This document shows, one piece after another, positions 7,567 to 55,395 of a DNA stretch of 64,000 nucleotides. Both the position numbers and the translations under genes were made by a program. Position 1 is the stretch's first letter; every line of letters begins with the position of its first letter. The DNA is from an uncultured virus (IMG/VR IMGVR_UViG_3300018412_000011) (lineage: Duplodnaviria; Heunggongvirae; Uroviricota; Caudoviricetes): the IMG/VR virus record IMGVR_UViG_3300018412_000011. One strand, given 5' to 3'. A model generated the notes under the pieces. The model searched no databases. It was not told the DNA's origin and saw nothing but the letters and a program-made list of their open reading frames with translations.

Positions 7567-7633
7567 GTTTTAGTCCTTTGTCTCGTTTATTCAACGACAG
7601 AACTAAAACTTCCTCTACTAGATCCTAAAAAAA

Positions 7634-10448: not shown

Positions 10449-10795
10449 GGGGATGATTGGAATCGATTCATATCGAAATAGCACTTTTGCATGGAGAATT
10501 CCATAACTTCTATAAAATATGGATAAAACTAAACGACAAAAGTTTAGAAATAGCTGCTTAAACAAAGCAGTTCGGGAAATAAGTAGATTATCTTAGTATC
10601 TTAAAATACCGTAAAATAACAAGATGGATTAAGAAAGTCCTTCTTTCTTTGACTTCTAGCAAAGACTAGATGCATTCTGATAGAAGAATCAGACAGAGTT
10701 TGTTTATGTCTCTGCTAACAAATAAACTAACCTTGTGAATGATAAAGTGTGGTTTCATAGAGAAGAAGGGAGTTCGAATCTCCCCATCTCCACCA
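10449..10795 (+). ncRNA. ssrA: tmRNA
   Basis: Acceptor stem GGGGATG/CATCTCC-ACCA with G3:U70, T-arm GGGAG-TTCGAAT-CTCCC, tag frame ...LNDKSLEIAA-stop at 10529-10561. Confidence 0.95.
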
Positions 10796-13944: not shown

Positions 13945-14020
13945 TGGTGCTTGTGGTGGGATTCGAACCCACACTCTCAGAAGGTTAGAATTTCTGGCTC
14001 TACCATTGAGCTATACAAGC
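13945..14020 (-). tRNA. tRNA with CUA anticodon (amber suppressor candidate)
   Basis: 76-nt cloverleaf GCTTGTATAGCTCAATGGTAGAGC-CAGAAA-TTCTAAC-CTTCTG...GTGGGTTCGAATCCCAC...ACCA. The stem pairs only with CTA at 34-36; there are A:C mismatches at 7:66 and 31:39. Confidence 0.75.
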
Positions 14021-14025
14021 ATTTG

Positions 14026-14544
14026 TTATAAATATTTTTTGTCTACAAAATCAGTTAACCATACTCCATTTTCTGACAAATAAAAATCAATATTATCAAG
14101 CATCATAGGCGTTGTATTAATTTCTACAATCCAAGGCTTTTCATTCCCCCTGCAATGTCGCTTGCCAACTTTAATCGCAGTTTCTTTATCGGCGCTTAAA
14201 TGTACATGTTGTCGATTCATCTTTAAAAGACCTTTTTTAAGAATTTGATCTTTAATTCTAGGGGTTGTTCCATGATAAAGAGTCTTTGGGGGAACTGTTT
14301 TTTTAAGTTGAACATTTACTTGAATTGAATGTCCTTGATTCGCCCTTATTTTTGTTTTCTCCTCGTTGAAAGAAAAACGTTTTTTGTTGTTGGTTGCGAC
14401 AATATTTTCCAATTGGACAAAGCTCACTCCAACTTTTTTCAAAACTTCATCGACAAAACACCATCCATTTTTATCCATATTTAAATCTTCTGGATTATGT
14501 CTTAAGAGATATGAGAGCTTTTTGCTTACTTTTATATTGTTCAT
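14026..14544 (-). CDS. kptA: RNA 2'-phosphotransferase (Tpt1/KptA)
   Basis: LSYLLRH, KKRF, IRANQGHS, LYHGT and RQHVHLS motifs. Confidence 0.95.
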   Translation of the reverse strand: MNNIKVSKKLSYLLRHNPEDLNMDKNGWCFVDEVLKKVGVSFVQLENIVATNNKKRFSFNEEKTKIRANQGHSIQVNVQLKKTVPPKTLYHGTTPRIKDQILKKGLLKMNRQHVHLSADKETAIKVGKRHCRGNEKPWIVEINTTPMMLDNIDFYLSENGVWLTDFVDKKYL

Positions 14545-19313: not shown

Positions 19314-20312
19314 TTATTTAAACTTATCAATGATGTTTACGAAATCTTCACGAATATTGACTTGAACAGCTTTAGAAAGTTCTTTTTTAACTTTTTTTGC
19401 TTCTTTTTCATCAATATCTTGTTCAATTTCTTCTTCGAACTCTCTGCGATATTCGTCAATAATATCTACAATGTATGTTCCCATTAGGGGGCCAAACTTC
19501 TTTTCATCAATATGGTCGAACTTAGACACAACAGCATTACGCCTATTCTCATTAACACAACCTAAAAGCCAATTCAATTTTTCTTTGGCTTTTTCAGAAA
19601 GCTTAATATCCTCTTTTAACTTTGCACTTTTGTTTTTCCCATTTTCTTTGAATTTTGCATTTTTATTTTTAAAAATAATTCTAGACCCAGTATTGAAAGT
19701 GCAATATTCAACTGGTTCAATAACAGTGCCTTCGGCAATATTTCCGTCAATATCAGGCAAGCCATAATACTTAGGAATGGTAGTTAGAAAATCATTAGGA
19801 TATTCAAGACATTCTTTCAAAGTACCTCTTTTTAGAATTTTTGCATAATGAAAATCAGTTTTTGAAAAATAAAATCCCCTATCATCAACATTTAAATGTT
19901 CACCATTTTTTACAATGTCAAATCCATAAAAATCATTATGAGGACAATATGAAACCTCTTTTTGAACTTTTTTGGTTCCTGGAGGAGAGACTATATCAGG
20001 ATAACCTCCTCCAAACCACTCCCCATAAACGGAAACAAATCCATCATTTCCCAAAAGGTCATAGAGTTTTAACATTCTTTCTTTAAGGGAATCAACATGA
20101 GAATTAATCCCATAGAAATTGCTTTCAATCCCAATAAACCCACTTCGGGATGCAAGGCGAAATTCGTTACCATCATAGTGCATGGATAGATTGCTGCCAT
20201 GAACTTTTTCGGTACAAACGAACTCTTGATTGGCTTTGCCTTCTTCGACAACTTTATCAAGATATTTTTGACGTTGTACATTTTCAATACTAGAGAATTT
20301 AGTGAAATTCAT
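19314..20312 (-). CDS. RNA ligase, Rnl2 family
   Basis: EKVHGSN (motif I), GEWFG, FDI, EGTV and FKNK motifs. Confidence 0.92.
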   Translation of the reverse strand: MNFTKFSSIENVQRQKYLDKVVEEGKANQEFVCTEKVHGSNLSMHYDGNEFRLASRSGFIGIESNFYGINSHVDSLKERMLKLYDLLGNDGFVSVYGEWFGGGYPDIVSPPGTKKVQKEVSYCPHNDFYGFDIVKNGEHLNVDDRGFYFSKTDFHYAKILKRGTLKECLEYPNDFLTTIPKYYGLPDIDGNIAEGTVIEPVEYCTFNTGSRIIFKNKNAKFKENGKNKSAKLKEDIKLSEKAKEKLNWLLGCVNENRRNAVVSKFDHIDEKKFGPLMGTYIVDIIDEYRREFEEEIEQDIDEKEAKKVKKELSKAVQVNIREDFVNIIDKFK

Positions 20313-29277: not shown

Positions 29278-30039
29278 CTATAAAGAACTTAATTTGTAAT
29301 CTCTTACTTTGTCGCCTTCTTTTGGGTGCTTATAAATTTTTTGCCTTTGATATTTATTGATACGCCTTTCATCTTTACCCAAATTATTGCCTTTACTAAA
29401 TTTGAAACCAAAATTAGTATTTTCAGAATTTTTAACTTTTAATATTGAAAGATTTTTGATTGTTTTTTTAATTTCAAACCCAAAAAACAAACTGCATTTA
29501 AATTTAAGAATTAAATCAACTTTACCTTTATTATCAAATAAAAAAGAATTGCCTTGTTTCCCATCTCTATTGGGAACAACTTCAATGCAATTATTAGAAT
29601 ATTTAATATTGCCTATCCCTAATTTTTTATGTTCCCCACACTCAATCCCGATCTGAACAGACGAATCGTGAATTATTAATGAATTTTCATTCGTTGAGGT
29701 TCTACTTTCTATATAGCTCCCTTGATATTCTATAGGCAAAAATGAAAAAATGCCTACATAAGTATTAAAATTATTTTCTTTTTCTCTAGTTACGTTTAAA
29801 TCCACCCAAATGAACTTCGAGAGAATAAAGGGAGACAATATCAACATAAAAAAAACGATGAAAAAATTTATAACTGGACTGATAATTTCCAAGAATTCAA
29901 TTGTCCATATACAAGGCCCTAAAAGTAAATTAAGTAAGAAAAGAAAAATTAACACATTGGCCAAAAAACTTATTCTACTTAAATAAAACATGAATAAAGC
30001 ATACATGAACTGTTCATGCTTGTTAAAAAAAATTAACAA
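29278..30039 (-). CDS. Membrane protein inside the tRNA array
   Basis: Two hydrophobic N-terminal segments; start uncertain. Confidence 0.55.
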   Translation of the reverse strand: MLIFFNKHEQFMYALFMFYLSRISFLANVLIFLFLLNLLLGPCIWTIEFLEIISPVINFFIVFFMLILSPFILSKFIWVDLNVTREKENNFNTYVGIFSFLPIEYQGSYIESRTSTNENSLIIHDSSVQIGIECGEHKKLGIGNIKYSNNCIEVVPNRDGKQGNSFLFDNKGKVDLILKFKCSLFFGFEIKKTIKNLSILKVKNSENTNFGFKFSKGNNLGKDERRINKYQRQKIYKHPKEGDKVRDYKLSSL

Positions 30040-30080
30040 TAAAAGCGCTTGTTGAAAAATTGTTTATGAAAAACGATTTG

Positions 30081-30151
30081 TGTCAAAAGTATGACTCGAA
30101 CTTACATCTTCCCCATACTAAGGGAAACTTCTGCCATTGAAATATTTGGGC
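30081..30151 (-). pseudogene. Degenerate tRNA-Thr(AGT)
   Basis: Anticodon arm TTCCC-TTAGTAT-GGGGA and TTCGAG loop; acceptor and T stems mismatched, no CCA. Confidence 0.55.
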
Positions 30152-30201
30152 CTATTTGTGAAATTTCGTGCAAGATATTTTGGGCATTATTTATAGTAAA
30201 A

Positions 30202-30276
30202 TGGTACTCGGTGAGAGAATCGAACTCCCATCATCGGTATGTAACACCGAGGTCTTAGCCGTTGGACAAACCGAGC
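30202..30276 (-). tRNA. tRNA-Val(TAC)
   Basis: Cloverleaf; anticodon arm TCGGT-GTTACAT-ACCGA; CCA end. Confidence 0.8.
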
Positions 30277-30323
30277 ATAATTAACCAAAACTTACTTTAT
30301 GCTTTTACGCCCACCAAATAAAA

Positions 30324-30400
30324 TGGTGGTCGATACTGGACTTGAACCAGTTACCCCTTCAATGTCAATGAAGTGCTCTAGCCAAATGAGCTAATCGACC
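30324..30400 (-). tRNA. tRNA-Val(GAC)
   Basis: Canonical cloverleaf; CTTCA-TTGACAT-TGAAG; ACCA. Confidence 0.92.
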
Positions 30401-30406
30401 ATAAAA

Positions 30407-30509
30407 TGGAACATGAGGTGGGCTATTTACCCTACTTCTCCGCCTTAACCTGGGAACCAAACGTGTTTCAACGCTCATTTCGAGCTTCAAAAATAAAAGC
30501 TTCTCATGC
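30407..30509 (-). ncRNA. tRNA-like RNA with enlarged centre, anticodon undetermined
   Basis: Acceptor GCATGAG/CTCATGT-TCCA, D-like GCTT/AAGC hairpin, atypical T-arm. Confidence 0.45.
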
Positions 30510-30642
30510 ATAAAATGTGCAAGCGGTAACTGTAAACTATCTCAACTCTTAAACCGACAGACTGTTATCTTTGTTCCAGACAAAGTTGCAGTAATTCAGA
30601 AAGCATCAATGATTTAATACTCAATCCCTTACTTGCGGAAAT

Positions 30643-30746
30643 TGGCGGGCCTGCTCTCACCCGAGTCAAACCACTTAAGTCTCTGTAATGGTGGAAGAGG
30701 GTCACATCCCCTATACACAAAACTTCAATGACAGGCAGGTTTCGCC
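30643..30746 (-). ncRNA. Structured small RNA candidate in the tRNA array
   Basis: Ends pair (GGCG..CCTGC / GCAGG..CGCC) and the sequence finishes in CCA. Confidence 0.4.
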
Positions 30747-30751
30747 TAAAT

Positions 30752-30859
30752 TGGTGAATGGGGCAAGATTCGAACTTGCGGCGACTTCTTAAACTCGTTT
30801 TTCGGACCTTTCCATCCATCATAGTTTAAGTACGGCTCTACCAACTGAGCTACACATTC
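30752..30859 (-). tRNA. tRNA-like gene with a greatly extended anticodon arm (identity undetermined)
   Basis: Normal acceptor, D (GCTCAGTTGGTAGAGC) and T arms with ACCA; about 32 extra nt around a CTTAAAC/GTTTAAG stem. Confidence 0.65.
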
Positions 30860-30866
30860 AAAAAAT

Positions 30867-30964
30867 TGGTGGATCGACTGGGGTTCGAACCCAGGACTCC
30901 AAGATTAATCATTTGCGCTATCTTACGCTGAAGTCTCGTACTCTACCAACTGAGTTACCGATCC
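30867..30964 (-). tRNA. tRNA-Lys(TTT)-like gene with a 22-nt insertion in the anticodon loop
   Basis: Removing 30909-30930 gives a 76-nt cloverleaf with CGAGA-CTTTTAA-TCTTG. Confidence 0.75.
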
Positions 30965-30967
30965 ATT

Positions 30968-31390
30968 TTAAATTTCGTAATCTTTTGCCCATCTAACCCC
31001 TATAGCTTGATTATTTTTAGAAGCCTCGACTCTTAATGTGGCTTGCTTAAAACCAACTTTGTCAACAGGAACAATATAGCATTTATTTAAGTCGGGACTA
31101 TATATTCCAAAAAGGTCAATTTGTCCTCTATAACTTTGTTTTTCATGCTTTGTAGAAGATCCTTCCGGAACATGATAAGTGGAACTACAACAAGGAAAAA
31201 CAAGAACTCCTTTTATAAGATTAGCTGTTTTTATTTGAACTCTTTCAAGACCATTGCCTCTGTCAATAACACAATCATATCTTTCACAATCTCCTAATAC
31301 ATCAGCTACAACCCATTCATTTTCTAGGCATTTCGCCATAAAATAAATTTCGCTAATTGTTCCCTTTCTTTTGGGTGCTTTCTTTTTCAT
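30968..31390 (-). CDS. PD-(D/E)XK endonuclease of the group I intron-associated (I-Ssp6803I-like) type
   Basis: GTISE, RYDCVID...RVQIKT and YRGQIDLFGIY motifs; lies between two tRNA-Lys genes. Confidence 0.8.
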   Translation of the reverse strand: MKKKAPKRKGTISEIYFMAKCLENEWVVADVLGDCERYDCVIDRGNGLERVQIKTANLIKGVLVFPCCSSTYHVPEGSSTKHEKQSYRGQIDLFGIYSPDLNKCYIVPVDKVGFKQATLRVEASKNNQAIGVRWAKDYEI

Positions 31391-31470
31391 TTAGTTCTCC
31401 TTGTTAAACCATGAGAATGGTTCTCTTTTGGTTTAAGGAATTCTTTCAAAAAATACAAAAAATTACAAAA

Positions 31471-31557
31471 TGGTGGGCGCAGAGGGAGTCGAACCCCCGT
31501 TGAGATTTTATTCTCGCGGCTTAAAAGGCCGATGCATAACCATTCTGCCATACACCC
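31471..31557 (-). tRNA. tRNA-Lys(TTT) with a long variable arm
   Basis: 87-nt cloverleaf; CGGC-CTTTTAA-GCCG; variable stem GAGA..TCTC; ACCA. Confidence 0.8.
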
Positions 31558-31615
31558 AATTTTAAAAAATTTCAAATTTCAAAGAACAATCAATTTTTGA
31601 GAAAAATTGTAAAGC

Positions 31616-31646
31616 AAAAAACCCGACCTTTCCAAGTCGGGTTTTG
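31616..31646 (-). terminator. Attenuator terminator of the Lys/Val/Thr tRNA operon
   Basis: AAAACCCGACTT-GGAA-AGGTCGGGTTTTTT; competing segment AGTTGGGTTTTG at 31666-31677. Confidence 0.85.
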
Positions 31647-31677
31647 AAAAACTATGTTGTTTAGACAAAACCCAACT

Positions 31678-31734
31678 TTAAGTAGTTTTAACTACCTTGA
31701 AAGTTTTTATGGTTTTGACTTTAACTAAGCTCAT
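31678..31734 (-). CDS. Leader peptide MSLVKVKTIKTFKVVKTT (Val/Lys/Thr sensor)
   Basis: 13 of 17 post-Met codons are Val, Lys or Thr; starts 9 nt after the -10 box. Confidence 0.85.
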   Translation of the reverse strand: MSLVKVKTIKTFKVVKTT

Positions 31735-31743
31735 GATGTAAAC

Positions 31744-31771
31744 AATATACTCTTTTTTCGAATTTATGCAA
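31744..31771 (-). promoter_or_regulatory. Promoter of the Lys/Val/Thr tRNA operon
   Basis: TTGCAT-N16-TATATT. Confidence 0.75.
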
Positions 31772-32846
31772 GACAAAAGTTCAATTATTTTTGTCCTCTA
31801 TCCAGAAGGAATCATTTTTTAAATGAGATGTAGGGACATTAAGACTAGTTGAAAAAACTTTTTCTTTTCCACATTTAAAACACTTTTCTTTTATTCTATG
31901 GACTCTTATTCCAGAACCTAGACCATAAGCCAACACAGAAAGACCTTCTGAAGTTTTATGAAATTTACATTTACATCTTTTGAATGGATTTTTCATTTTG
32001 TATCTAAAAAAATTTTCAAATTTATAAAAAGCTCCAAAAAACAACATGTTCCCAAATTTTAGGCTTTTCTGCCTTATTCCATTTGTCTGCCTCTACGTCT
32101 AAAATATACCAATTGACTTCTTCTATAACCCCTTCTCCAACCCTAACCTACTCCATAAAAATATCTCTAGCTTCTTCTAAAGAGGGGAACCAAGATCTTA
32201 CTCGACAACTATCTATCTTCCCCTCTCGTTTTTCGCTTTTCAGGATCAGAAGCAATAGTTGTTATAACATAAATTTCTTCTTTCATAACAAATTTAAAAT
32301 TCTTTGAGTTTCTCGATCATAATCTTCTATACTTTTTATGTTATCATTTTTGCGATGATTGTCAAACAGTTTTTTAAAATCTTTTTCTGATTCTCGGATA
32401 TGATCAAGTAATTCGGGTTTTTCTGAAACCTCATCTAAAGAAACGCCATACCAATCTTTAAAAATTTCATCAAGTTTTTTGTTAAATGCCATTGGAATCT
32501 CCTACAATTTTAATCTCGCAATCTACTTTGTCAATACGCATTTGACAATAACAAACCCATACATTTCTTTCTTCACATATTTTTAAAAGATATGCATTGC
32601 ATTCTGTTGTTGCCACTCCTGTTTTTTCTTCATAATTTAAGTTTTCAATTTTTGCTTTGCAATATCCAAAAAAATGAGAAACGAGAATTTCGTCACCTTT
32701 TTGTAAATCATTTAATCCACAAGAATGACTTTCAGAAAATGGCTTTAAATCGTAGTCTTTGTCCTCAAGAAGATTTAACAATTCTTGACTCAATGGCCAA
32801 ACGGGAGTGCCATAATGTTCCTTTATTGTCCAATTTAATTTACTCA

Positions 32847-33248
32847 TTATTTTAAAGAAAGTAAATATCTCAACTTTTCAAGTTGAGTAAGAATGTCATC
32901 TCTAATATTGATAATCCCCTTAGAACTATTCAATGCTGTTAATCCTTCAAATTTATAAATAGTTGCTTCCACAAAACTCACAATATCTTTCTCATTAATG
33001 TCTAAAAGAGAATCAATTTTACAATTCTTTTCCCCAAATGTAATCCTATGTGATCCTTGTAAATTTTCAATTAATTCATCAAAAAGGTCATCTAATCCCC
33101 CATAAATTTCTTCAAAAGCTTTGTGCTGGCTATATGATGTCGTTTGCCAATGCCATAATTTTAACTGACTTTGAACCCAAAGAATTAATTGTATATATTC
33201 TTGAATCAATAACATATGCTTTTTTGTAAAATTTGAATTGCAATCCAT
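32847..33248 (-). CDS. Ferritin/Dps-like four-helix protein
   Basis: HWQT.SYSQHKAF...D.LIE and LRYLLSLK motifs. Confidence 0.7.
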   Translation of the reverse strand: MDCNSNFTKKHMLLIQEYIQLILWVQSQLKLWHWQTTSYSQHKAFEEIYGGLDDLFDELIENLQGSHRITFGEKNCKIDSLLDINEKDIVSFVEATIYKFEGLTALNSSKGIINIRDDILTQLEKLRYLLSLK

Positions 33249-33913
33249 TTTTCTTTCCTTTTTATATTTTATAAATTGTATTAAAGATTATTCCTCAAGT
33301 CAAGAATTATTTTTGATAACTTTGAGTTTCTCCTCCAAACGTTTCAATCTCAACTTCATCATCAAATTCAACACTTTTTCCTCCAATTTGCTTCCATCGA
33401 TTTTGTTCTAACGAATGGTCATACCCCTTCATTTGAGGATGAACCTCTGGAGTGTCATCTAATTGAGGGTTTTGAGTAGGTGCATTTATAGCTTTTGAAG
33501 CAGAAGGGGTTTTACTCTTTTCTTCCCAAGCTCGATATACATTGGACATAGAATATTCTTCTATTGTTTTGTCTCTTGCATCAGCTTCTTCATCTGTGAA
33601 CTTTTGTTGATCAAAAAAAGCTTTTTGCAAATTACTTATCCCATTGGGTTCTGTCATTATGGTATCCTCTTTAATTCATTTTTCTCTTCCTCATCCCAAC
33701 AGATGCCCTCTAAAGCATCCAAAATTTCATCGGCATCTGCACCTGTTTCTTCTTCTAAATGATTCACAAGTCCTTTTAATGCTTTTTTAAAGGCTAAGTC
33801 TTGATTAGAGATATATTCAGTATGAAATTCCCTTGTGGTTTTTGGAATATATGAAGATTTTTGAGTTCTAATATGCTTTGTCAAAGGAGCGTCGGGATTT
33901 AATTTTAGATTAT

Positions 33914-34726
33914 TCATAATAGTTCCTTATTTATATGTTTTAATGAATTATCAAAATTAGCATAAAAACGAAAAGGGTCAATCAAAGACAATCCACTCAT
34001 TTCTCCACTATTAAGTTCAATGACTATCCACTCTCCATTTTCTTTTTCCCCAACATCAACAACAAAAAAATTGGTTTTCTCTTTTACAATATTAGAAATT
34101 TTATTGACCAAATCAAAACATTCCACAGGAGGTTGTTCGTAAGGTTGACAATCAGGTTCGTCTGCCCAATAATAACCATAATCAATGATTTGATCTTTTA
34201 AGAGAAAAAACCTCCATTCATTCGTCACAGGCAAACCATTCATTCCATCCATAAATTTTCTTAATTTAACAAATTCTCTTACAACCACTCCTTGATCTCT
34301 GACTAAAGAATCATCCATTAATCTTGATACAATTCGAGTGACATCATTTTTGCTAGGAGCATACATTTGATGTTTCCATTGAAATTTTCTAGAATTCGTT
34401 CTTCCTTTCACTATATATTCACCCTCTGGAAGATTTGCCCATTGAAACCATGTTTGAGGAGTAAATTCTTTAATGTCCTCATAATAATCAAAATTAGCAA
34501 TATACTGATGTTGCCTATAACTATTAACTAACCTTGAATTATTTAAAGCCAACTCTTCTCCCAATTCTTTTCTGAATGGAAGAACTGAATATCTCCCAAA
34601 AACAAGATGGTTCGAAGGAATTTCACTTCTAAATCTATAAACAGGAAACGACAAAGTTTCTTTGGCAATTTCATATTCTTCTTCAAAATCTTCAGAAGCT
34701 CTAAATAAAAAACAAATGTTTTGCAT
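33914..34726 (-). CDS. ATP-grasp domain protein
   Basis: VVVREFV, NEWRFF and FFVVDVG...WIVIELN motifs. Confidence 0.8.
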   Translation of the reverse strand: MQNICFLFRASEDFEEEYEIAKETLSFPVYRFRSEIPSNHLVFGRYSVLPFRKELGEELALNNSRLVNSYRQHQYIANFDYYEDIKEFTPQTWFQWANLPEGEYIVKGRTNSRKFQWKHQMYAPSKNDVTRIVSRLMDDSLVRDQGVVVREFVKLRKFMDGMNGLPVTNEWRFFLLKDQIIDYGYYWADEPDCQPYEQPPVECFDLVNKISNIVKEKTNFFVVDVGEKENGEWIVIELNSGEMSGLSLIDPFRFYANFDNSLKHINKELL

Positions 34727-34748
34727 AAACCATTATACGACAAAGACA

Positions 34749-35520
34749 AAAAAAATGAAGCAATATTTTTCAGTATTGCTTCAGGTATAGGATGAGATTA
34801 CTCCGTTAACAAGGGTCCATTTGCAAACTTATTTTTTATTTGCGTATCCACTGTTTTACCAGTTGACCCTCACATTCGCCTTTTTAAATTGGAGGCTGTT
34901 CCAATCATTATAGATTCTTCTGCAAAACTTTCGACTTCCGAAACTAGCTAGGTTCCAAAAATCTAGTTATTCTACAAACTCTTAAGCCTTGCGAGCTTAA
35001 AAGCCCCTGGAGATCCAGGCGTTGAATGCTTACCTCTACGATGGGACGGGATTATTGCTTTTGAAGTTTATTTGGATTTAAACCAAGTCTTCATGACTTA
35101 TATTACTCAATTGTGAAATCCGCACCCGCCCATCTGTTTCGCTTCTTTCGAAACAAAATGCAGAACGAATCTCTATCCTCGTCTTGCGTGACGTTTGGAC
35201 GCTTTTCTAGGATTCCCCCTGACCTTTTAACGTCAGTAATCTTCCTATCAAGTTGCATGCAGCCATTAAAACGCAAATAATTTTGACCGTATGCTTACCC
35301 TTTGACCAACTCTTCTTTCTCTATCTAGATTACCATTCGGCATTTCCAGAGGAACTTTCGTTCTTTCGATACTCGAAAAGAATCTCCCCTTGTGGAAAGA
35401 ATTCTAGTCTCGGCTTGCATCAGTGACCTTTTCCAAGGCGATCTACGTCTTGAGTGCGTAGACCTTTTTTATATGTTGCCATATATCTATCTTCCCCGAA
35501 GGAGGATGTGATACCACCCT
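34749..35520 (-). ncRNA. Large (~770 nt) structured ncRNA, GOLLD/ROOL-like candidate
   Basis: ORF-free, GC-richer, many GNRA-capped hairpins; own promoter (35583-35610), boxB/boxA-like leader (35535-35565) and terminator (34749-34782). Confidence 0.7.
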
Positions 35521-35582
35521 TAAATCTATTTTTTTAGAGAACAATGTTGGGTTTTTATGTCCAACTTAAAATTTGTACGAAC

Positions 35583-35610
35583 AATATACCTGGTTTTTCA
35601 ATTTATGCAA
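35583..35610 (-). promoter_or_regulatory. Promoter of the large ncRNA
   Basis: TTGCAT-N16-TATATT, identical boxes to two tRNA-operon promoters. Confidence 0.75.
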
Positions 35611-36464
35611 GAACTTTTTCATTTTCTTTCGACTCAAAATTTTCATTCGAAAATTAGACCATCCAACTTTTCAAAAGCAATGTGGTTTTTCTTGAAGCTT
35701 TAATACTAATTTGTATGAAGGGATATTCTATCATAATTAATTTTCAACTAGATCAGCATATATCTTTTCTAAAGCACAATCCACTTTCTCAAGTTGATTA
35801 TAATATTGAGTTTTATCTTCCCCTGATTGCAAATTAGCATAAGCAATATTGTCTACAATTTTATTCCTGTGCTCTTCTAAAACCTTTAATTCTTCTATGC
35901 AATTTTTATTCTTTTCTCTTTTTGAATGTTCAATTTTGCTTTTCAAAAGAGGCACAGATTTTACATCCCCTTTTTCCGAAACTATAGTTAACAAAATGTC
36001 TCCCCATTCAGTTTCCAAAATAGCAATTGCCTCACCCTTAATCTATTCTAGGGGTTCGCAACCATATCTTATTACTTCTTCATCGTTTTTGAAGCTAACA
36101 ATTTTACCCATAAGATATTCTTCATTTATTATATTTTTAACAATCATTTTGTTTTCCTTCCTTAATACTCCGAACAAGCCAAATAGCGAGGTTTAAAATC
36201 ATAAATATATAACCATTCCTCACATGTATGGGTAATCTTTTTGCCTTCAAAATCTATGGTTAAATTGTCTTTATCATTCAAGGTTGTAAGAAAAAGATCT
36301 ACTTCTTCTTCCCGTTCTTTAATTTCTTCTTCCCGTTCTTTAATGACGAGATCCCTTGCCGTTTCTGCATTAAGGGCTATTACCCAATGATTTACTAAAT
36401 GTTGTTCTGTCGCTCTAAACACTTTCATAATTTGAATACTACCATAAATGCAGTTCATGTAAAG

Positions 36465-36491
36465 AAAAAACCCCAACAAAAAATGTTGGGG
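36465..36491 (-). terminator. Intrinsic terminator after hsp20
   Basis: CCCCAACA-TTTTT-TGTTGGGG-TTTTTT. Confidence 0.75.
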
Positions 36492-36522
36492 AAAATGTCA
36501 AAACTAAGATGCTTTATTTAGT

Positions 36523-36993
36523 TTATTTAATCTCAATTAACCTTTTTGTTTCTTCCTTTTCTTTATAGGGAATCACAATGGTTAACAATCCATCTTTCAT
36601 TTCGGCTTTGATATCAACCTCATTAAGATTAGGATCTGTCAATTGATACGAATGAGAGAAGGATCTTTGGGTAATCCCCCTATACATCTCTGTTTTGTGA
36701 GAAGTATCTTCTTTAGCTTGAACTGCGGAAACCGTTAAAATCCCATCATCAAACTCAACTTTCACATCATCTTTGGTATAACCTGACAATGCGAATTTGA
36801 ATTCTAGGGCCAAAGGATTTCCTTCATCATCTTCGATTTTATTTAAATCGAAAGGTACGCCTCTCTCTTGAGAAGCGTATATCTTTGGCGACCAATGATC
36901 TCCTTTGAAAAAAGTTTCAAAGAAAGGATCATCAAAAGCGTCTGAATTAAAGACGCTAGGCATTCTTCTTCTGTATTTAGTTAATGTTGTCAT
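36523..36993 (-). CDS. Small heat-shock protein (Hsp20/IbpA-like)
   Basis: FALSGYTKDDV, RGITQRSF and AEMKDGLLTI motifs. Confidence 0.92.
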   Translation of the reverse strand: MTTLTKYRRRMPSVFNSDAFDDPFFETFFKGDHWSPKIYASQERGVPFDLNKIEDDEGNPLALEFKFALSGYTKDDVKVEFDDGILTVSAVQAKEDTSHKTEMYRGITQRSFSHSYQLTDPNLNEVDIKAEMKDGLLTIVIPYKEKEETKRLIEIK

Positions 36994-37350
36994 GTTTATC
37001 TCCTTTTCAGCTAGATGTTAAGTTTATATTCCTTCATAAGATTTCATTTGAAAAATCAAATGATGTTCAGACATATGAACTTAATTTTGACATATTTTTT
37101 ATGTTTTTCTGGAACACTCTTTCGACATGTTCCTAGAATGTATCGAATCAATCGACATATTCTTACCAATATTATACTTTAAAATGTTAAAAATGCAAAA
37201 AAATTTTTACAAAAATATAAACAGAACAACGTACCTGTCTTCCACCTCAAACTCTATTTGAAATATTCTTTCTTGCTTCTTAATTAATAAAAAAATATAG
37301 TTTTATTTGAATATATTTTACATCACATCTAACGTGTCGTAAAATATAAA

Positions 37351-37590
37351 ATGAAAACATATGTCAAAGAAAAAATAGAAGTAAGAAACTTAAACAAAGT
37401 CCAATGTGATGTTTGCAAAAAAGAAGCCAATATTGAAGATGTTGATGAAATGAGTTTTATTCAAGAGATGACTCATATTTCCTATACAGGAGGGTATGGA
37501 AGTATTTTTGGAGACATGAATAAAATTGAGCTAGATATTTGCGATAAATGCCTAAATGAACAGTTGGGGAATTTCATTAGAGTTAATTAA
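37351..37590 (+). CDS. Small Zn-ribbon protein
   Basis: CDVC...GGYGSIFGD...CDKC. Confidence 0.7.
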   Translation: MKTYVKEKIEVRNLNKVQCDVCKKEANIEDVDEMSFIQEMTHISYTGGYGSIFGDMNKIELDICDKCLNEQLGNFIRVN

Positions 37591-37591
37591 A

Positions 37592-37683
37592 TGGTAGGCA
37601 GAGTGGGACTCGAACCCACACTTCGTACACGATTAGTCAGAGTTTATAAGACTCCCGGCTTCACCAAATTTGCCTATCTGCCT
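37592..37683 (-). tRNA. tRNA-Ile(TAT) with a long variable arm
   Basis: Acceptor AGGCAGA/TCTGCCT-ACCA; GGAGT-CTTATAA-ACTCT; 19-nt variable region. Confidence 0.8.
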
Positions 37684-37694
37684 ATTTTAAAAAC

Positions 37695-37720
37695 AAAAAA
37701 CCAACCCTTTCGAGTTGGCT
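37695..37720 (-). terminator. Attenuator terminator of the tRNA-Ile gene
   Basis: GCCAACTC-GAAA-GGGTTGGTTTTTT; competing GGGTTGG at 37762-37768 inside the leader. Confidence 0.85.
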
Positions 37721-37747
37721 TTTAATGCATGGAAAAAAGAAAAACAG

Positions 37748-37816
37748 TTAACACATGGAATCCAACCCAAATAAAATTGAGTTAGCTATTCGTATGATGT
37801 TAATGATTTGCTTCAT
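37748..37816 (-). CDS. Leader peptide MKQIINIIRIANSILFGLDSMC (Ile sensor)
   Basis: Six Ile codons (ATC ATT ATC ATA ATA ATT); ATG 6 nt after TTGACT-N16-TATATT (37823-37850). Confidence 0.82.
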   Translation of the reverse strand: MKQIINIIRIANSILFGLDSMC

Positions 37817-37846
37817 GTCTACAATATACGCTTAAAAAGAAATAAG

Positions 37847-38347
37847 TCAATGATTTTCTCGTTCAATTTTTAATGTTTCTTTTATTTTGGGAATATCGAC
37901 CTCTTGTAATCCATGTTCTTCATTGATTAAGATATGATGCTTTTTCAATTTCTCATCTGAAGCATCTGGATCATCATCCAAAATCACAAAATTGGTTACT
38001 TCAGGATGTTCATCGAACCATGAATGAATTTCATAATATCTTGGAATATACTCTGAAAAATGAAAATATCTCCCTTTATATCCTTTAACCCGAATACAAG
38101 GAGTTTTGTCCCAAATATCAAAAACAGTTTTAACTGCCTTATATCCATCTTCTAAGTTTCTCCAAGTTGATGACAAAACAATTTTTGCATCAAATTCTTT
38201 TTGAATGTCTTTGACTATTTTTATACTTCCAGGATCAAAACCACTAATGGATCTATACACGGAATGATCTTTGGTTTTATCAAACAAATTGTCTAAATAA
38301 ATCCAATTATTAATTACTCCATCAATATCTAGAAATATAACTTTCAT
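37847..38347 (-). CDS. HAD-family phosphatase (RNA-repair-associated type)
   Basis: MKVIFLDIDGV, IVLSSTWR and FVILDDD motifs. Confidence 0.85.
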   Translation of the reverse strand: MKVIFLDIDGVINNWIYLDNLFDKTKDHSVYRSISGFDPGSIKIVKDIQKEFDAKIVLSSTWRNLEDGYKAVKTVFDIWDKTPCIRVKGYKGRYFHFSEYIPRYYEIHSWFDEHPEVTNFVILDDDPDASDEKLKKHHILINEEHGLQEVDIPKIKETLKIERENH

Positions 38348-39473
38348 ATTTTCGTCACTTAATCGCCCCAATAAGAAACCTTGTACCACCCATGACCCTG
38401 ATGTTCAATTAACCCATCATCTGCAAGTTCACTTATCCCTTGGTGAATTTGGGCTCTTGTCCATGTATCATTTGATTCAAGCAAATCATCACAAATATTT
38501 GACCGTTGGTTCCCTTTGTCAATATGATAGCGTATTCGCTTTTTTAGTTCACTTTGATCATACATATAAAAAGTCCAATTGCATATAAAATAATTTCTAT
38601 CATTATTTTCCTCTACAAAAGATTGCATTATTTAAAACCTTTTGTCAACTAAAATCTTAAATTATTTAAAGCACTCTAAGGTTTTAATCTCATTTCTTAC
38701 GATTGCACAAACAATTTCATCAAATGTTTCTTTAGAATATTTCCCATCTGGTAAATCACTTCCTCTTGTCCAAGTTTCTCCAACCAAAGGAGTTCTGCAA
38801 CTACTGATGCAACCTAAATATCCTTTATCTTTTCCATTCGGCAAAGTTGCAGAAATTCCATATTCGTATTCATTAGAATAGAATTTACACTTCACCCTCA
38901 ACCCTGATTCTCTTCCACATTCAAGAAAAAAACAAGATTTTTCAAAATTGCCATAAGGAATGATAGAAGACAACCATTCAATAAATTCTCCAAAACCTAG
39001 TTTGACCAAATCTTCTTTAGAAATTAGTTTGCCTTCATAACGTTTTTCAATCATTTCAATGGTGTGGCTTTTTCTTGTTTTTTCGTCACAAAGTTGAGGT
39101 ACTTTTGTTTCTAATGAACTTTCATTTTTCATTTTAATATCCTTGGTTTTCTTAATTGATTATACAAGATTTTACATTTATCACATTTAATTTTCATTTT
39201 ATTCTTTGAACGTCAAAAGTATAATCGGGACATTTATTCGCAACCGTATCTCCCCACTTTTCTTTTTCCTCATCGCCTGTTTGAGGAGAAAAAATATGTT
39301 TCTTTTTATGTAAAGAACAAATTCTTCCCATTCCATGTCCCACTGTCAAAAACTTACAATCCCAACATGATTTGTTTTCTTCTGTCCCAAATTTTTTAGA
39401 TGTGAAGGGCTTGTGCCATCCATATCCGTCTTCATCTACCCATATTGTCTTTTGCATAATGTTCTCCTTAAAT

Positions 39474-39553
39474 TGGAGTGCTAGACAGGAATCGAACCTG
39501 CTTTTACGTCTAGATTGGAAATCTAGGGACTCACCTTTCGCCTCAACTAGCAC
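39474..39553 (-). tRNA. tRNA-Gly(TCC)
   Basis: Acceptor GTGCTAG/CTAGCAC, U73, CTAGA-TTTCCAA-TCTAG; atypical D-arm. Confidence 0.8.
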
Positions 39554-39574
39554 ATGTTTTATTATACAGTAAAA

Positions 39575-39666
39575 TGGTGGGGCCAGACGGGATCGAACCG
39601 ACGACCTTCTGAATGCATCATTGTCTTTCGACGAATCAGACGCTCTCCCAGCTGAGCTAATCCCCC
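39575..39666 (-). tRNA. tRNA-Ala-like gene with a 16-nt anticodon-loop insertion; acceptor stem partly mismatched
   Basis: GGGGGATTAGCTCAGCTGGGAGAGCG start; removing 39618-39633 gives TCTGA-TTTGCAT-TCAGA; lacks G3:U70. Confidence 0.65.
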
Positions 39667-39700
39667 ATTAGGATTGGTATTTACATTATACAATAAAAAT

Positions 39701-39779
39701 TGGTGGAAGTGACGGGTCTCGAACCCGCAAAACTCCGCATTGCAAGTGCGGTGCTTTACCGTACATAAGCTTCACCCCC
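39701..39779 (-). tRNA. tRNA-Ala(TGC)
   Basis: G3:U70, CCGCA-CTTGCAA-TGCGG, ACCA. Confidence 0.88.
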
Positions 39780-39836
39780 ATTATAATATTTCAAATTTTT
39801 TAAAGAACAATTAATTTTTGAGAAAAATCATAAAAC

Positions 39837-39867
39837 AAAAAACCCAATCTTTAGCGAGATTGGGTTT
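39837..39867 (-). terminator. Attenuator terminator of the Ala/Gly tRNA operon
   Basis: AAACCCAATCT-CGCTAA-AGATTGGGTTTTTT; competing GATTGGGTTT at 39886-39895 overlaps the leader stop codon. Confidence 0.88.
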
Positions 39868-39893
39868 CGGAAAAATCGACAATACAAACCCAA

Positions 39894-39971
39894 TCAGAAG
39901 GAGATACCTCCTGCCGCTGCGGCCCCGCCGTTTCCAATGTTTGTATAAATTTTTTTCAAGTTTTTAATCAT
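39894..39971 (-). CDS. Leader peptide MIKNLKKIYTNIGNGGAAAAGGISF (Gly/Ala sensor)
   Basis: GGA AAC GGC GGG GCC GCA GCG GCA GGA GGT; ATG 6 nt after TTGCAT-N16-TATATT (39978-40005). Confidence 0.88.
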   Translation of the reverse strand: MIKNLKKIYTNIGNGGAAAAGGISF

Positions 39972-40014
39972 GGAATCAATATAACGCATCTTTAACATTA
40001 TGCAAGAAAAATTT

Positions 40015-40551
40015 TCATCTTTTTTCGTAAAGCTTATCAAAATATTTAATCTCTTTTTCATAACACTTTTTGAAAAAAATATTATATAAGTATAGAACCT
40101 CACAAAAATCATCCGTAAGAGTGGTTGATTCAAGGTTTTTCTCTCGAAAGTCTTTAATGAGCTCTTTCATTTGTTGTATGTGAGAATACTTTTCAATATC
40201 AATGTAAGATTCTTCATCTAAATGTTTTAAGGATAAATAAAGAGTCTCGACAGAATCCCATAGAGGCCACATGAAATTACGATGCAAAACAGTAGAACTC
40301 CCATATCTTCCAAGATACATAGGGGAAGAAATCAAATCTATAAGTCTCTTAACCGCTTTTTTATTTGACATATTTTTCCTAGATAAAATGAAAAATGCTT
40401 TTTTCTCTTTATATCGTCCAATGGCTTTAGACAATTCTAAAACCGCTTTAATTTCTTGAAGTTCTTTAAACTGTTCCAACACAAAACCTACATCAAGTTT
40501 TAATGTGCTGAGTTGGTCTTTTGATAACTTAATATATCCCATGTTTTCCAT
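40015..40551 (-). CDS. Hypothetical protein, paralog family MENxGYxK
   Basis: Similar to 40567-41139 and 43627-43845. Confidence 0.65.
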   Translation of the reverse strand: MENMGYIKLSKDQLSTLKLDVGFVLEQFKELQEIKAVLELSKAIGRYKEKKAFFILSRKNMSNKKAVKRLIDLISSPMYLGRYGSSTVLHRNFMWPLWDSVETLYLSLKHLDEESYIDIEKYSHIQQMKELIKDFREKNLESTTLTDDFCEVLYLYNIFFKKCYEKEIKYFDKLYEKR

Positions 40552-40566
40552 AATTTTTCCTTGTTT

Positions 40567-41103
40567 TTAAAGATTTATTTGAATCATTTCTACATTAAAA
40601 TTTGGCTTATAATGTTCGTTATACAAATTCTCCCAATAACGAAGTTTAACTTTGTTATCTGATATTGTCCAAGCTGCTTCATATTTTTCCAAAGAAGTTT
40701 TGGCAATATCCATTGAGATTTTATAAGTTTCAATGTCTAGGTACGATTCCCTTGTCAAGTTACGAATTAAGTCTAGGAACTCTATTGCTTTATCTAAAAC
40801 TTTATCTCCATACCCTTGAGTTAAAATCCTAAAATCTCCGTATTTAAAATCAATAAACAATCCATATCTTGATTCCACAGATTCTACTAACTCTTTAATA
40901 ATTTCAGAATTTCCCATTTCATCCACTTTTTTTTGTTTAAACTTGAATCTTTTTTGAGTTCTATAATTTAAGACAGAACGTTCTAATTCTTCAACTGCTT
41001 TGATTTGCTGAATTGTTTTAAATTTCTGAATTCCTTTTTCTACTTTTTCAACAATGTCATTGACATCATCGGGATCAATTTTCACATAGCCTAAATTTTC
41101 CAT
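40567..41103 (-). CDS. Hypothetical protein, paralog family MENxGYxK
   Basis: MENLGYVKI...QQIKAVEELE...ESYLDIE. Confidence 0.65.
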   Translation of the reverse strand: MENLGYVKIDPDDVNDIVEKVEKGIQKFKTIQQIKAVEELERSVLNYRTQKRFKFKQKKVDEMGNSEIIKELVESVESRYGLFIDFKYGDFRILTQGYGDKVLDKAIEFLDLIRNLTRESYLDIETYKISMDIAKTSLEKYEAAWTISDNKVKLRYWENLYNEHYKPNFNVEMIQINL

Positions 41104-53985: not shown

Positions 53986-55395
53986 TTATACATCAAAGCG
54001 TCTTACAAAATCTGCTATTCTTGTTTTTTTAGAAGTTTTTTCTTCCTTCAACCACACAATAGCATGAGAAAATGGCAAATAACTTTCGGGAGTTGAATCA
54101 TTTTTATTATAATCCCAGAAAGTTTTTATTTCTGGGAACCTTTTTAACAAATTATTTTCTTTAGAAACTTTTTTACCCGAACAATAAGGACACTTTGAAC
54201 CAGAACATCTTGTCTTAACGCTTGTTTCCCACTCATGTCCCTTTTTACATTTCCACCAAACTTTTCTCCCTGACCCATAAGTTATATTATTTGGATTTAT
54301 AGCATTATTTTTTTGATCATTCCATTCTTTTATTAGTTCAGGGTGGGTTTCGGACAAAGGAGTAGAACAACCAAGATGTGAACTTCTATATTTTAAATAT
54401 TCTTTTTCATTCCAAAAAAAATTTTCTTTCATATATTTTTCCAACTTATTATTTTTACAATCTATTGTTTTTAAAACATAGCAAATCTTATTAATAATCT
54501 CTTTATGGTGGGTGAAATTATTGCATTTAATATCCCAATTGTTAATTTTATCCAAAGGAAACTCTCTAATTCTTAAAACTTCAATTCCTTTATTTTTAAA
54601 ATAAATATTTTTGTTTTTATCATTTTTTATCCTATTCTTGTGCCAATACCCACCATCTATTTCGATTCCAATTTTTATCGAAGGTATAAAAACATCTAGT
54701 TCTTTTCTGCCTTCCTTGTAGTGCCAAATAGAATCTAGATATATTGCTTTAATCTCTGAAAATACCCTTATTTCCATATCAGAATATTTGTTTTTACAAA
54801 AAGGGCAACTAGTCCCTCTGACTCTAGCTGCAATGGTTGCTTTCCATTCATGTCCAAATTTACATTTCCAATGAACCTTTAAACCCTTACCTTGAGTCAT
54901 ATTTTTAGGATCTATACTATTTTTTTCGTAATCCCATTCTTTCATAATGGGTAAATCTAAAATGCTATTTTTTTCTGAGGGCAAAAAACCTTTACAATAA
55001 GGACATCCTATTTTAGTTTTAATATTTCCCAGTTGATGAGGAGAAGCTTTCCATTCATGTCCATCATTGCAAACCCACCAAACCTTTTTGGTTGAAGCTG
55101 GCAATATATCTCTAGGAGATATATTGTTTTTTTTATAATTCCATGTTTTGAGCAAATCAGGTCGTTTAATCTCAAGGTTGTTTTCTTGACAAACCTTGCC
55201 TCCTTTACAGTAAGGACATCCTCTTTTTAAATACAATCTATTAGCTATTTTAGCTTCCCACTCATGTCCTTTTTCACAAACCCATAAAGCTTTTTCATTA
55301 AGATTGTATATTTCTTTCTTTTCAAAATTGCTTAAATCCCATTCTTTTATCAAATTTTCTTCATTCAATCTAATTAACAAATCTTCTTTTTTCAT
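53986..55395 (-). CDS. Zn-ribbon repeat protein with a Vsr/DUF559-like endonuclease domain (probable homing endonuclease)
   Basis: Four WxCxxGHEW...CPYC repeats; ELDVFIP...IEIDGGYWH...VLRIRE. Confidence 0.8.
   Translation of the reverse strand: MKKEDLLIRLNEENLIKEWDLSNFEKKEIYNLNEKALWVCEKGHEWEAKIANRLYLKRGCPYCKGGKVCQENNLEIKRPDLLKTWNYKKNNISPRDILPASTKKVWWVCNDGHEWKASPHQLGNIKTKIGCPYCKGFLPSEKNSILDLPIMKEWDYEKNSIDPKNMTQGKGLKVHWKCKFGHEWKATIAARVRGTSCPFCKNKYSDMEIRVFSEIKAIYLDSIWHYKEGRKELDVFIPSIKIGIEIDGGYWHKNRIKNDKNKNIYFKNKGIEVLRIREFPLDKINNWDIKCNNFTHHKEIINKICYVLKTIDCKNNKLEKYMKENFFWNEKEYLKYRSSHLGCSTPLSETHPELIKEWNDQKNNAINPNNITYGSGRKVWWKCKKGHEWETSVKTRCSGSKCPYCSGKKVSKENNLLKRFPEIKTFWDYNKNDSTPESYLPFSHAIVWLKEEKTSKKTRIADFVRRFDV

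Follow-up and report, generated by a model that had tools for sequence, protein, structure and literature searches.

Putative leader-peptide transcription attenuators upstream of tRNA operons in an uncultured Caudoviricetes virus and its relatives

Results

Three tRNA loci with a common upstream module

The DNA analysed here, referred to as the window, is a 64,000-nt stretch of an uncultured Caudoviricetes virus (IMG/VR IMGVR_UViG_3300018412_000011). Three transfer RNA (tRNA) loci on its minus strand, named L1, L2 and L3, show one common order of elements: a promoter, an ATG, an open reading frame (ORF) of 18-25 codons, an antiterminator segment (segment 2), an intrinsic terminator and the tRNA genes. 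Judged from the sequence, such modules are probably ribosome-mediated (leader-peptide) transcription attenuators placed before phage tRNA operons. This reading is carried by the anatomy of the modules, the concordance between leaders and tRNAs, the matched alternative pairings of the RNA and the conservation of these features across diverged relatives.

All three promoters have the form TTG(C/A)(A/C)T, 16-nt spacer, TATATT, and the ATG stands 9, 6 and 6 nt after the -10 box in L1, L2 and L3, respectively. When both strands of the window were searched for TTGNNN-N15-18-TATATT-N4-12-ATG, four matches were found, three of them at L1-L3. The three terminators were also listed by an independent terminator scan.

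The L1 promoter (31744..31771, on the minus strand like all features of the three loci) consists of a -35 box TTGCAT (31771-31766), the spacer and a -10 box TATATT (31749-31744). The leader ORF (31678..31734), with its ATG at 31734, has 18 codons plus TAA and reads MSLVKVKTIKTFKVVKTT; 13 of the 17 codons after the ATG are for Lys, Val or Thr. As the ATG is so close to the -10 box and no Shine-Dalgarno sequence precedes it, the L1 mRNA would be leaderless or nearly so. Segment 2 (31666..31679) begins at the leader stop codon and pairs with the 5' arm of the terminator in a duplex of -15.3 kcal/mol, an energy reached by 0 of 500 shuffles. The terminator (31618..31645) has a 12-bp stem, a GGAA-type loop and a T-run, and the spacer behind it (31558..31617) carries the motif ATTGTTCTTT..AAATTT, which recurs behind the L3 terminator and immediately ahead of the transfer-messenger RNA (tmRNA) gene. 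The first tRNA of the operon is tRNA-Lys(UUU) (31471..31557; 87 nt, with a long variable arm). It is followed by a gene for a PD-(D/E)XK endonuclease (PDDEXK_5; 30968..31390), by two Rfam tRNA matches with anticodon-loop inserts of 13-22 nt (30752..30964), called by the intron option of ARAGORN as Arg(UCU) at 30867-30964 and a doubtful Ser(GGA) at 30752-30859, and by the distal tRNAs (30080..30400) Val(GAC) (30400-30324), Val(UAC) (30276-30202) and Thr(AGU) (30151-30080). No terminator-like site was found on the minus strand from 31618 to 30000.

The L2 promoter (37823..37850) is formed by TTGACT (37850-37845), the spacer and TATATT (37828-37823). Its leader ORF (37748..37816), with the ATG at 37816, comprises 22 codons plus TAA (MKQIINIIRIANSILFGLDSMC) and has six Ile codons among 21, two of them ATA. 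The antiterminator segment (37761..37769) lies within the 3' part of the ORF, and its duplex (-9.3 kcal/mol, reached by 31 of 500 shuffles) is the weakest of the 13 modules scored here. The hairpin core (37718-37701) of the terminator (37696..37723) ends 17 nt before tRNA-Ile(UAU) (37592..37683), a tRNA of 92 nt with a long variable arm.

At L3, the promoter (39978..40005; TTGCAT at 40005-40000, spacer, TATATT at 39983-39978) is followed by a leader ORF (39894..39971) with its ATG at 39971 and 25 codons plus TGA (MIKNLKKIYTNIGNGGAAAAGGISF), in which 9 of 24 codons, within the run GNGGAAAAGG, are for Gly or Ala. The antiterminator segment (39885..39896) overlaps the TGA stop, with a duplex of -14.9 kcal/mol reached by 1 of 500 shuffles, and the terminator lies at 39839..39868. 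The tRNAs (39474..39779) are Ala(UGC) (39779-39701), an insert-bearing tRNA (39665-39575) and Gly(UCC) (39553-39474). The insert-bearing one has 16 nt inserted in its anticodon loop, is called Ala with CGC or UGC by ARAGORN and has no G3:U70.

An earlier note on this DNA had proposed the common layout of the three minus-strand loci and a match between the codons of each leader and its own tRNAs, and both proposals were confirmed, with every element present at each locus. The L1 locus had been drawn to the tRNA-Lys at 31471, beyond which the operon continues to 30080, and its Val, Lys and Thr tRNAs had been named without the endonuclease gene and the two insert-bearing tRNAs. The window also holds a fourth tRNA locus, a suppressor tRNA(CUA) (13945-14020, minus strand) right behind the Tpt1 gene, which has no leader.

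In one metagenome-read contig at phage depth, positions 31584-31625 were joined to 39960-40011 across 112 other letters, giving an L3-like promoter and start together with an L1-like terminator. Therefore, at least one further module of the same type exists in this phage outside the window, and assemblies break at 31584-31613 because of this repeated sequence. Contigs from the metagenome runs showed no useful variation in the leaders.

Modules of the same architecture in relatives

Relatives were obtained by protein-guided scans of IMG/VR. The first, G002, is a 161-kb contig with a CheckV completeness of 87%, a PolIII identity of 64% and synteny with the window at window 47-61 kb. The second, G005 (296 kb), encodes a 573-aa protein with 66% identity; since G004 is a longer copy of the G005 element (coordinate offset 212,353), both were counted as one phage. 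Upstream of tRNA clusters in G002 and G004/G005 the architecture of the window modules was found again with different sequences. Altogether, modules were present at 14 of the 23 tRNA loci with readable upstream DNA in the window, G002 and G004/G005, a count from which the first G002 cluster, cut by the contig end, was excluded. In all 14 modules, leader composition follows the tRNA set.

In G002, the leader MFFINQQNNQQNQNSESNLGMVVQIILLAV, rich in NQQNNQQNQN, precedes Asn, Gln and Asn tRNAs, and MNTKQNIFSFFSFRHPSWTLKVGYVMF (IFSFFSF) precedes a Phe tRNA. The leader MYIKTKTVEKATVFKKTVMGLFCFV (short form IKTKTVEKATVFKKTV) stands before Lys, Val, Thr, Thr and Lys, and MKMNINTIHIPEHIEIPEPIGKGYGCVMS (short form IHIPEHIEIPEPI) before His, Ile, Glu and Pro, the last of these being Pro(UGG) from an anticodon loop read by eye. 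In G005, MYATTKTTKTTKTTKKRVASGGLLS (short form TTKTTKTTKTTKK) precedes three Thr and three Lys tRNAs, VEIAIAVVAVAVVA precedes Val, Ala, Ala, Val and Ile, IFRFF precedes two Phe tRNAs, and REPEREEPP precedes three Glu and three Pro tRNAs. The two remaining G005 leaders are MNVVRDMHIIRRDWSHRASDLRYRMF (short form VVRDMHIIRRDWSHR), before four Arg, Trp, two Ile, Val, two Asp, Met and His, and MKSLSLSLCSSYLSLRWTGLCVQRT (short form SLSLSLCSSYLSL), before Cys, Tyr, Leu and Ser. In the region present only in G004, the leader MSVQVQQNNQNNQALEGFGRLFSA (QVQQNNQNNQ) stands before Gln, two Asn and two Gln tRNAs. This last module was found later and was left out of the statistics, which refer to 13 modules. 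All 13 have ATG-initiated ORFs of 14-30 codons, and 8 of the 10 modules from relatives have an AGGA or GGAG that resembles a Shine-Dalgarno sequence 7-12 nt ahead of the ATG.

Other searches for related DNA gave little. No match to 37400-40100 was found among GenBank phages by blastn, and tblastn of GenBank phages with HAD_SAK_2 and PolIII gave distant phages only, below 42% identity. Viral contigs scanned with HAD_SAK_2 and PDDEXK_5 gave no match, and the post-terminator motif was absent from viral contigs and metagenome contigs. A PolIII scan of metagenome contigs revealed 30 relatives at 30-71% identity (with 500-nt flanks), and a search with the G005 promoter motif gave 51 matching stretches with no further relatives among them. 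G003 (PolIII 59%) is tRNA-free on its 59.7-kb fragment.

Leader codons match the tRNAs of the operon

For the analysis of concordance, a leader was defined as an ATG ORF ending at the terminator and starting after the -10 box. The 13 leaders have 306 codons in total, of which 143 are cognate to the amino acids of the downstream tRNAs. Every module is above expectation, with binomial p values per module from 6e-6 to 0.026 against the composition of the window proteome. A comparison with shuffled pairings at other clusters and in relatives had been suggested in the earlier note; when it was made, the true pairing of leaders to clusters alone had the top score among 103,680 within-genome permutations, beating all other 103,679, and none of 200,000 13-way shuffles across genomes reached its score. 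The two remaining frames of these ORFs give 46/306 and 29/306 cognate codons. Therefore, the cognate signal belongs to the reading frame and not to base composition.

It is very unlikely that the match is a matter of chance or a by-product of hairpin base composition: part of the L3 Gly/Ala run does lie in a GC-rich hairpin and the three window leaders alone permit just six pairings, but the permutation maximum, the frame control and the independent recurrence in two diverged relatives speak against it.

The leaders also change with the operons. The window and G002 group Val with Lys and Thr, and G005 groups it with Ala and Ile; His and Ile are grouped with Glu and Pro in G002 and with Arg, Trp and Asp in G005. 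In each case the leaders change alike. Such tracking of operon content through rearrangement is equivalent to a swap experiment made by nature. The two G005 leaders with Ile and Val also agree with their own isoacceptors in codon choice: the leader ahead of Ile(UAU) and Val(UAC) has ATA and mostly GTA, and the one ahead of Ile(GAU) and Val(GAC) has ATT and GTT.

Terminators with matched alternative pairings

Each of the 13 modules has, between the leader ORF and the tRNAs, a T-run preceded by a GC-rich hairpin of -8.8 to -19.5 kcal/mol; at least four GC pairs were required in the choice of terminator. In each module, the best upstream partner of the terminator 5' arm pairs with it at -9.3 to -21.6 kcal/mol, and when the upstream region was dinucleotide-shuffled 500 times per module, 0-31 of the shuffles reached this energy. 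This segment 2 is located from -50 to +12 nt relative to the end of the leader stop codon in 13/13 modules. When each terminator was tested against all 13 upstream regions, its own was the top partner in 10 of the 13 cases.

The transcript up to the terminator loop was then folded with a 28-nt ribosome footprint at every codon, in an equilibrium model without kinetics. The 5' arm was sequestered (P >= 0.7) at 108 of the 143 positions with a cognate codon in the A site, compared to 88 of 176 other positions. Once the ribosome covered segment 2, the probability of the antiterminator dropped to a minimum of 0.01-0.47. Folded without a ribosome, only W_L2 (0.09) and G5_C (0.01), and partly G5_B (0.48), behaved in a trp-like manner.

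Where transcription of the tRNAs starts

A stretch of 15-17 nt separates the terminator hairpin from the first tRNA in 4 of the 13 modules. This gap leaves no room for a separate promoter, so these tRNAs must come from read-through. A -10-like box adjoining the L2 tRNA would start transcription within the tRNA itself. L1 and L3 have a conserved spacer of 63-64 nt before the tRNA, and the motif of this spacer also precedes the tmRNA, where it lies downstream of the tmRNA promoter; in L1 and L3 it was read as a part of the tRNA precursor and not as a promoter. The tmRNA itself (10449-10795, plus strand; 68 bits) has the promoter TTGATT-17-TATATT and is preceded by ATTG(G)TTCTTTAAAAATTT, the same motif as that after the L1 and L3 terminators, which may be a shared precursor-processing signal.

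These data bear on the alternative that the promoter-ORF-terminator cassettes are separate units, such as small RNAs or micro-proteins, and that the tRNAs are transcribed from their own promoters or from upstream genes. The promoter-like match over the L1 terminator (see Discussion) and the spacers of L1 and L3 are in its favour. The short gaps in four modules and the position of the L2 box argue against it, and it leaves the antiterminators and the concordance of leaders and tRNAs unexplained, which makes it a very improbable account.

Unusual tRNAs and other features of the window and its relatives

The window, which looks like a piece of a large uncultured phage, has a G+C content of 32% and carries nearly all its genes on the minus strand. 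Near-complete coverage of it was found in three freshwater metagenome sequencing runs, and no RNA run was among the runs listed as containing this DNA. Its proteins include a DnaE-type polymerase with intein-like interruptions, RNA ligase 2, Tpt1/KptA, a HAD 'Swiss Army Knife' RNA-repair domain, an R2K ATP-grasp protein and Hsp20, and its RNA genes comprise the tmRNA and 11 Rfam tRNA matches. The PolIII alpha gene (4932-9064, minus strand) is split into ORFs that carry intein or Hint fragments and flank a TnsA-like endonuclease ORF, and LAGLIDADG ORFs are found at 3656-4807 and 62377-63408.

A match to GOLLD RNA (RF02032; 34789-35173, minus strand; 137.3 bits, E 6e-37) is slightly below the gathering score of 150. 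The match has the L1 tRNA locus on one side and the L2 locus on the other, and a terminator (34783-34756) follows it. Within the L1 operon, the 351-nt stretch between tRNAs at 30401-30751 (minus strand) contains neither a convincing ORF nor an Rfam match at E <= 1. On the minus strand of G005, at about 96.0-96.5 kb, the promoter motif of the tRNA leaders stands ahead of about 490 nt of non-coding DNA, a terminator and then a protein gene; this non-coding stretch may be a structured RNA of a new type.

Insert-bearing tRNA genes occur in the window (30752-30964 and 39575-39665, minus strand), in G002 (54059-54192) and at several more places, with anticodon-loop inserts of 13-59 nt. They match Rfam as tRNAs and are found by ARAGORN solely with its intron option; for group I introns the inserts are too short. 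Genes for RNA repair or nucleases in the window are Tpt1/KptA (14026-14544), Rnl2 (19314-20312), HAD_SAK_2 (37847-38389) and the PD-(D/E)XK gene of the L1 operon. A tRNA splicing or repair pathway run by the phage is conceivable.

Long variable arms are combined with class I anticodons in the Lys(UUU) (87 nt) and Ile(UAU) (92 nt) tRNAs of the window, and G005 has long-variable-arm tRNAs of 88-91 nt for Lys, Ile, Glu and Cys. G005 also has a CUA suppressor tRNA, with a plain promoter; in the window, TAG ends just 6 of 87 long ORFs. In G002, three tandem pieces resembling tRNA 3' halves (T arm plus the acceptor 3' strand ending in CCA) lie at 63192-63400, between the Thr and Lys(CUU) tRNAs.

Discussion

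A model of the tRNA operon attenuators

In the mechanism proposed here, transcription would start at a sigma-70-like promoter, and the short ORF would be translated at once, from a leaderless mRNA in the window and from a Shine-Dalgarno site in most modules of the relatives. The first two thirds of the ORF would act as the sensor, being rich in codons for the amino acids of the downstream tRNAs. A ribosome lagging on these cognate codons would leave segment 2 free to pair with the terminator 5' arm; the terminator hairpin would then not form and RNA polymerase would continue into the tRNA genes. With fast decoding, the ribosome would be on segment 2 as the terminator is made, the hairpin would form and transcription would stop. 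The arrangement of the modules suggests translated ORFs, working terminators and a read-through that depends on ribosome position. Since the tRNA product would relieve the slow-decoding signal, each operon would be a negative-feedback loop on its own aminoacyl-tRNA supply, and a leader that mixes several amino acids would make the operon as a whole respond like an OR gate. Depletion of the tRNA pool could arise in nature from a mismatch with host codon usage, from host tRNA loss in infection, from tRNA-cleaving defence enzymes or from starvation.

Several observations weigh against this model or limit it. Nine of the 23 examinable tRNA loci have no leader: the two CUA suppressors; in G002, the Ala/Gly cluster and the cluster at 54059; and in G004, single Leu, Met, Arg and Pro tRNAs and a Met plus Gly cluster. 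The 16 tRNA matches of G001, a 57.7-kb contig reached through its R2K ATP-grasp protein (45% identity), were without leader or terminator modules as judged by eye; however, G001 is too distant to weigh for or against attenuation. The three window leaders lack a Shine-Dalgarno sequence and would need leaderless initiation in the host. A weak promoter-like match, TTGGAA-18-TACAAT (31635-31606), overlaps the L1 terminator, and the L1 operon has a tRNA called Arg(UCU), yet the L1 leader contains no Arg codon. The amino-acid background used for all three genomes was that of the window proteome alone.

The match is also weak at the codon level: of the 143 cognate-amino-acid codons, 128 are readable under strict wobble by the tRNAs of their operons, compared to 118.5 expected from codon usage. 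Concordance holds at the level of the amino acid and hardly at that of individual anticodons. At L2, four of the six Ile codons are not ATA, so slow decoding there could not be relieved by tRNA-Ile(UAU).

The folding results depart from the trp model in two ways. Without a ribosome, the antiterminator forms in the model in 10 of the 13 modules and read-through is predicted; therefore, most modules lack a trp-type 1:2 'protector' hairpin, which is a feature of the trp subtype and not of attenuation as such. With the ribosome at the stop codon, segment 2 is left uncovered and the antiterminator re-forms in the model in 7 of the 13, so that termination would depend on timing. From these departures, the translating ribosome itself would be the anti-antiterminator, and termination would have to depend on the ribosome passing segment 2 while the polymerase makes the hairpin. 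The attenuation logic put forward in the earlier note agrees with the matched antiterminator found at the leader stop for every terminator and with leaders that track their own tRNA sets in the relatives, and in the folding model a stall on most of the cognate codons would leave the antiterminator free. Its statement that the tRNAs are transcribed 'only when ribosomes stall' is too strong, given the read-through predicted for most modules when no ribosome is present, and anticodon nucleases, which it names as a trigger, are a speculative one.

Alternative signals and readers

The main alternative accepts the same hardware and differs in the signal, which would be amino-acid starvation or a general slowing of translation, with the module tuning tRNA output and not serving rescue after tRNA damage. 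This possibility, the less likely one, agrees with a concordance seen at the amino-acid level with anticodons near expectation and with the L2 Ile codons unreadable by the tRNA they would control; in addition, classical attenuators (trp, his, leu) are established to sense the supply of charged tRNA whatever the cause. Nevertheless, extra tRNA is useless if the amino acid is missing, so that no obvious benefit would follow from this signal alone. The two G005 Ile/Val leaders use the codons of their own isoacceptors, and the RNA-repair-type enzymes of the window (Rnl2, Tpt1, HAD_SAK_2) hint at a theme of tRNA damage.

It is improbable that the switch is real but read by a protein, by a tRNA (as in T-boxes) or by another factor, the ORFs being incidental. 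Translation of the ORFs is only predicted, those of the window lack Shine-Dalgarno sites, and the antiterminator forms without a ribosome in most modules, all of which would suit such a reader. However, the cognate residues are frame-specific, ATG starts and in-frame stops abutting segment 2 are found in 13/13 modules, and Shine-Dalgarno-like sites precede most leaders of the relatives. In addition, peptide sequences vary while composition is kept, which is a mark of codon sensing, and neither a T-box nor another Rfam leader family was found in 29500-41000 at E <= 1.

Comparison with known systems

Leader-peptide attenuation is a textbook mechanism, known for genes of amino-acid biosynthesis or tRNA charging. 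The modules probably controlling the phage tRNAs resemble trpL, hisL, leuL, thrL, ilvL, ivbL and pheL of E. coli and Salmonella (PMC1183508, PMC3082878) in having regulatory codons clustered within a short ORF close to the promoter, in the choice between a terminator and an exclusive antiterminator, and perhaps in a stop codon placed so that a finishing ribosome would block the antiterminator. They differ from these classical attenuators in controlling tRNA genes, so that the product would act directly on the signal. Furthermore, most of them have no 1:2 protector hairpin and are predicted to be read through if untranslated, the window leaders are leaderless mRNAs, and there is no match to an Rfam leader family: the Trp, His, Leu and Thr leader families were not among the matches listed in Rfam scans of 29500-41000 and of the whole window. 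A precedent for mixed codon blocks exists in multivalent leaders, among them thr (Thr, Ile) and ilv (Ile, Leu, Val). The phage leaders differ in mixing up to seven amino acids.

In bacteria, the pheST synthetase operon is attenuated by the pheM leader peptide, which senses one amino acid. It is similar to the phage modules in that a leader-peptide attenuator acts on a component of the decoding apparatus and not on a biosynthetic enzyme, but it controls a protein gene, that of an aminoacyl-tRNA synthetase, whereas tRNA genes would be controlled here, in phages and by many differing leaders per genome. T-box riboswitches likewise choose between terminator and antiterminator, depending on whether a specific tRNA is charged. 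Unlike the phage modules, whose frame-specific ORFs point to ribosomes, they bind uncharged tRNA through a specifier codon and the T-box sequence, work free of ribosomes and control synthetase or amino-acid genes; no T-box match was found in the whole window at the gathering score.

Phage tRNAs, for example the T4 and T5 sets, replace host tRNAs lost to degradation or anticodon nucleases, and the phage thereby secures its own decoding capacity, as would be the case here. To our knowledge, the work on T4 and T5 concerns which tRNAs are carried and why, and not a sensor gating their transcription.

In mycobacteria, leaderless polycysteine short ORFs attenuate operons, according to the accessible part of a preprint (bioRxiv 10.1101/834739). 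As leaderless sensors rich in one codon type they are a precedent for the window leaders, although their targets are cysteine-related protein genes and that part of the preprint states no intrinsic terminator.

A full-text search, from which subscription journals are largely absent and which does not prove absence from print, gave no description of leader-peptide attenuation of tRNA genes in phages or bacteria, and the available portions of PMC2965389 and PMC3082878 make no mention of it. An attenuator at E. coli pheV or pheU was considered as a possible precedent, but the region upstream of pheV shows a plain promoter and no terminator.

Implications for phage biology

A broader possibility, put forward tentatively and somewhat short of an even chance, is that large freshwater phages run a genome-wide, modular circuit of decoding capacity, in which nearly every tRNA operon would have a codon-matched sensor ORF and the tRNA sets in short supply would be transcribed. 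Together with RNA-repair enzymes and unusual tRNAs, it would counter the loss of host tRNAs, including that caused by anticodon nucleases.

As the modules are short, self-contained and different only in codon content, they lend themselves to easy reporter tests and might be used as natural sensors of how fast chosen codons are decoded. If the attenuation model is true, it would be the most direct known way to match tRNA supply to codon demand, and phages would regulate their tRNAs set by set, beyond merely carrying them. This would bear on why phages encode tRNAs and on their conflict with host defences that attack tRNA.

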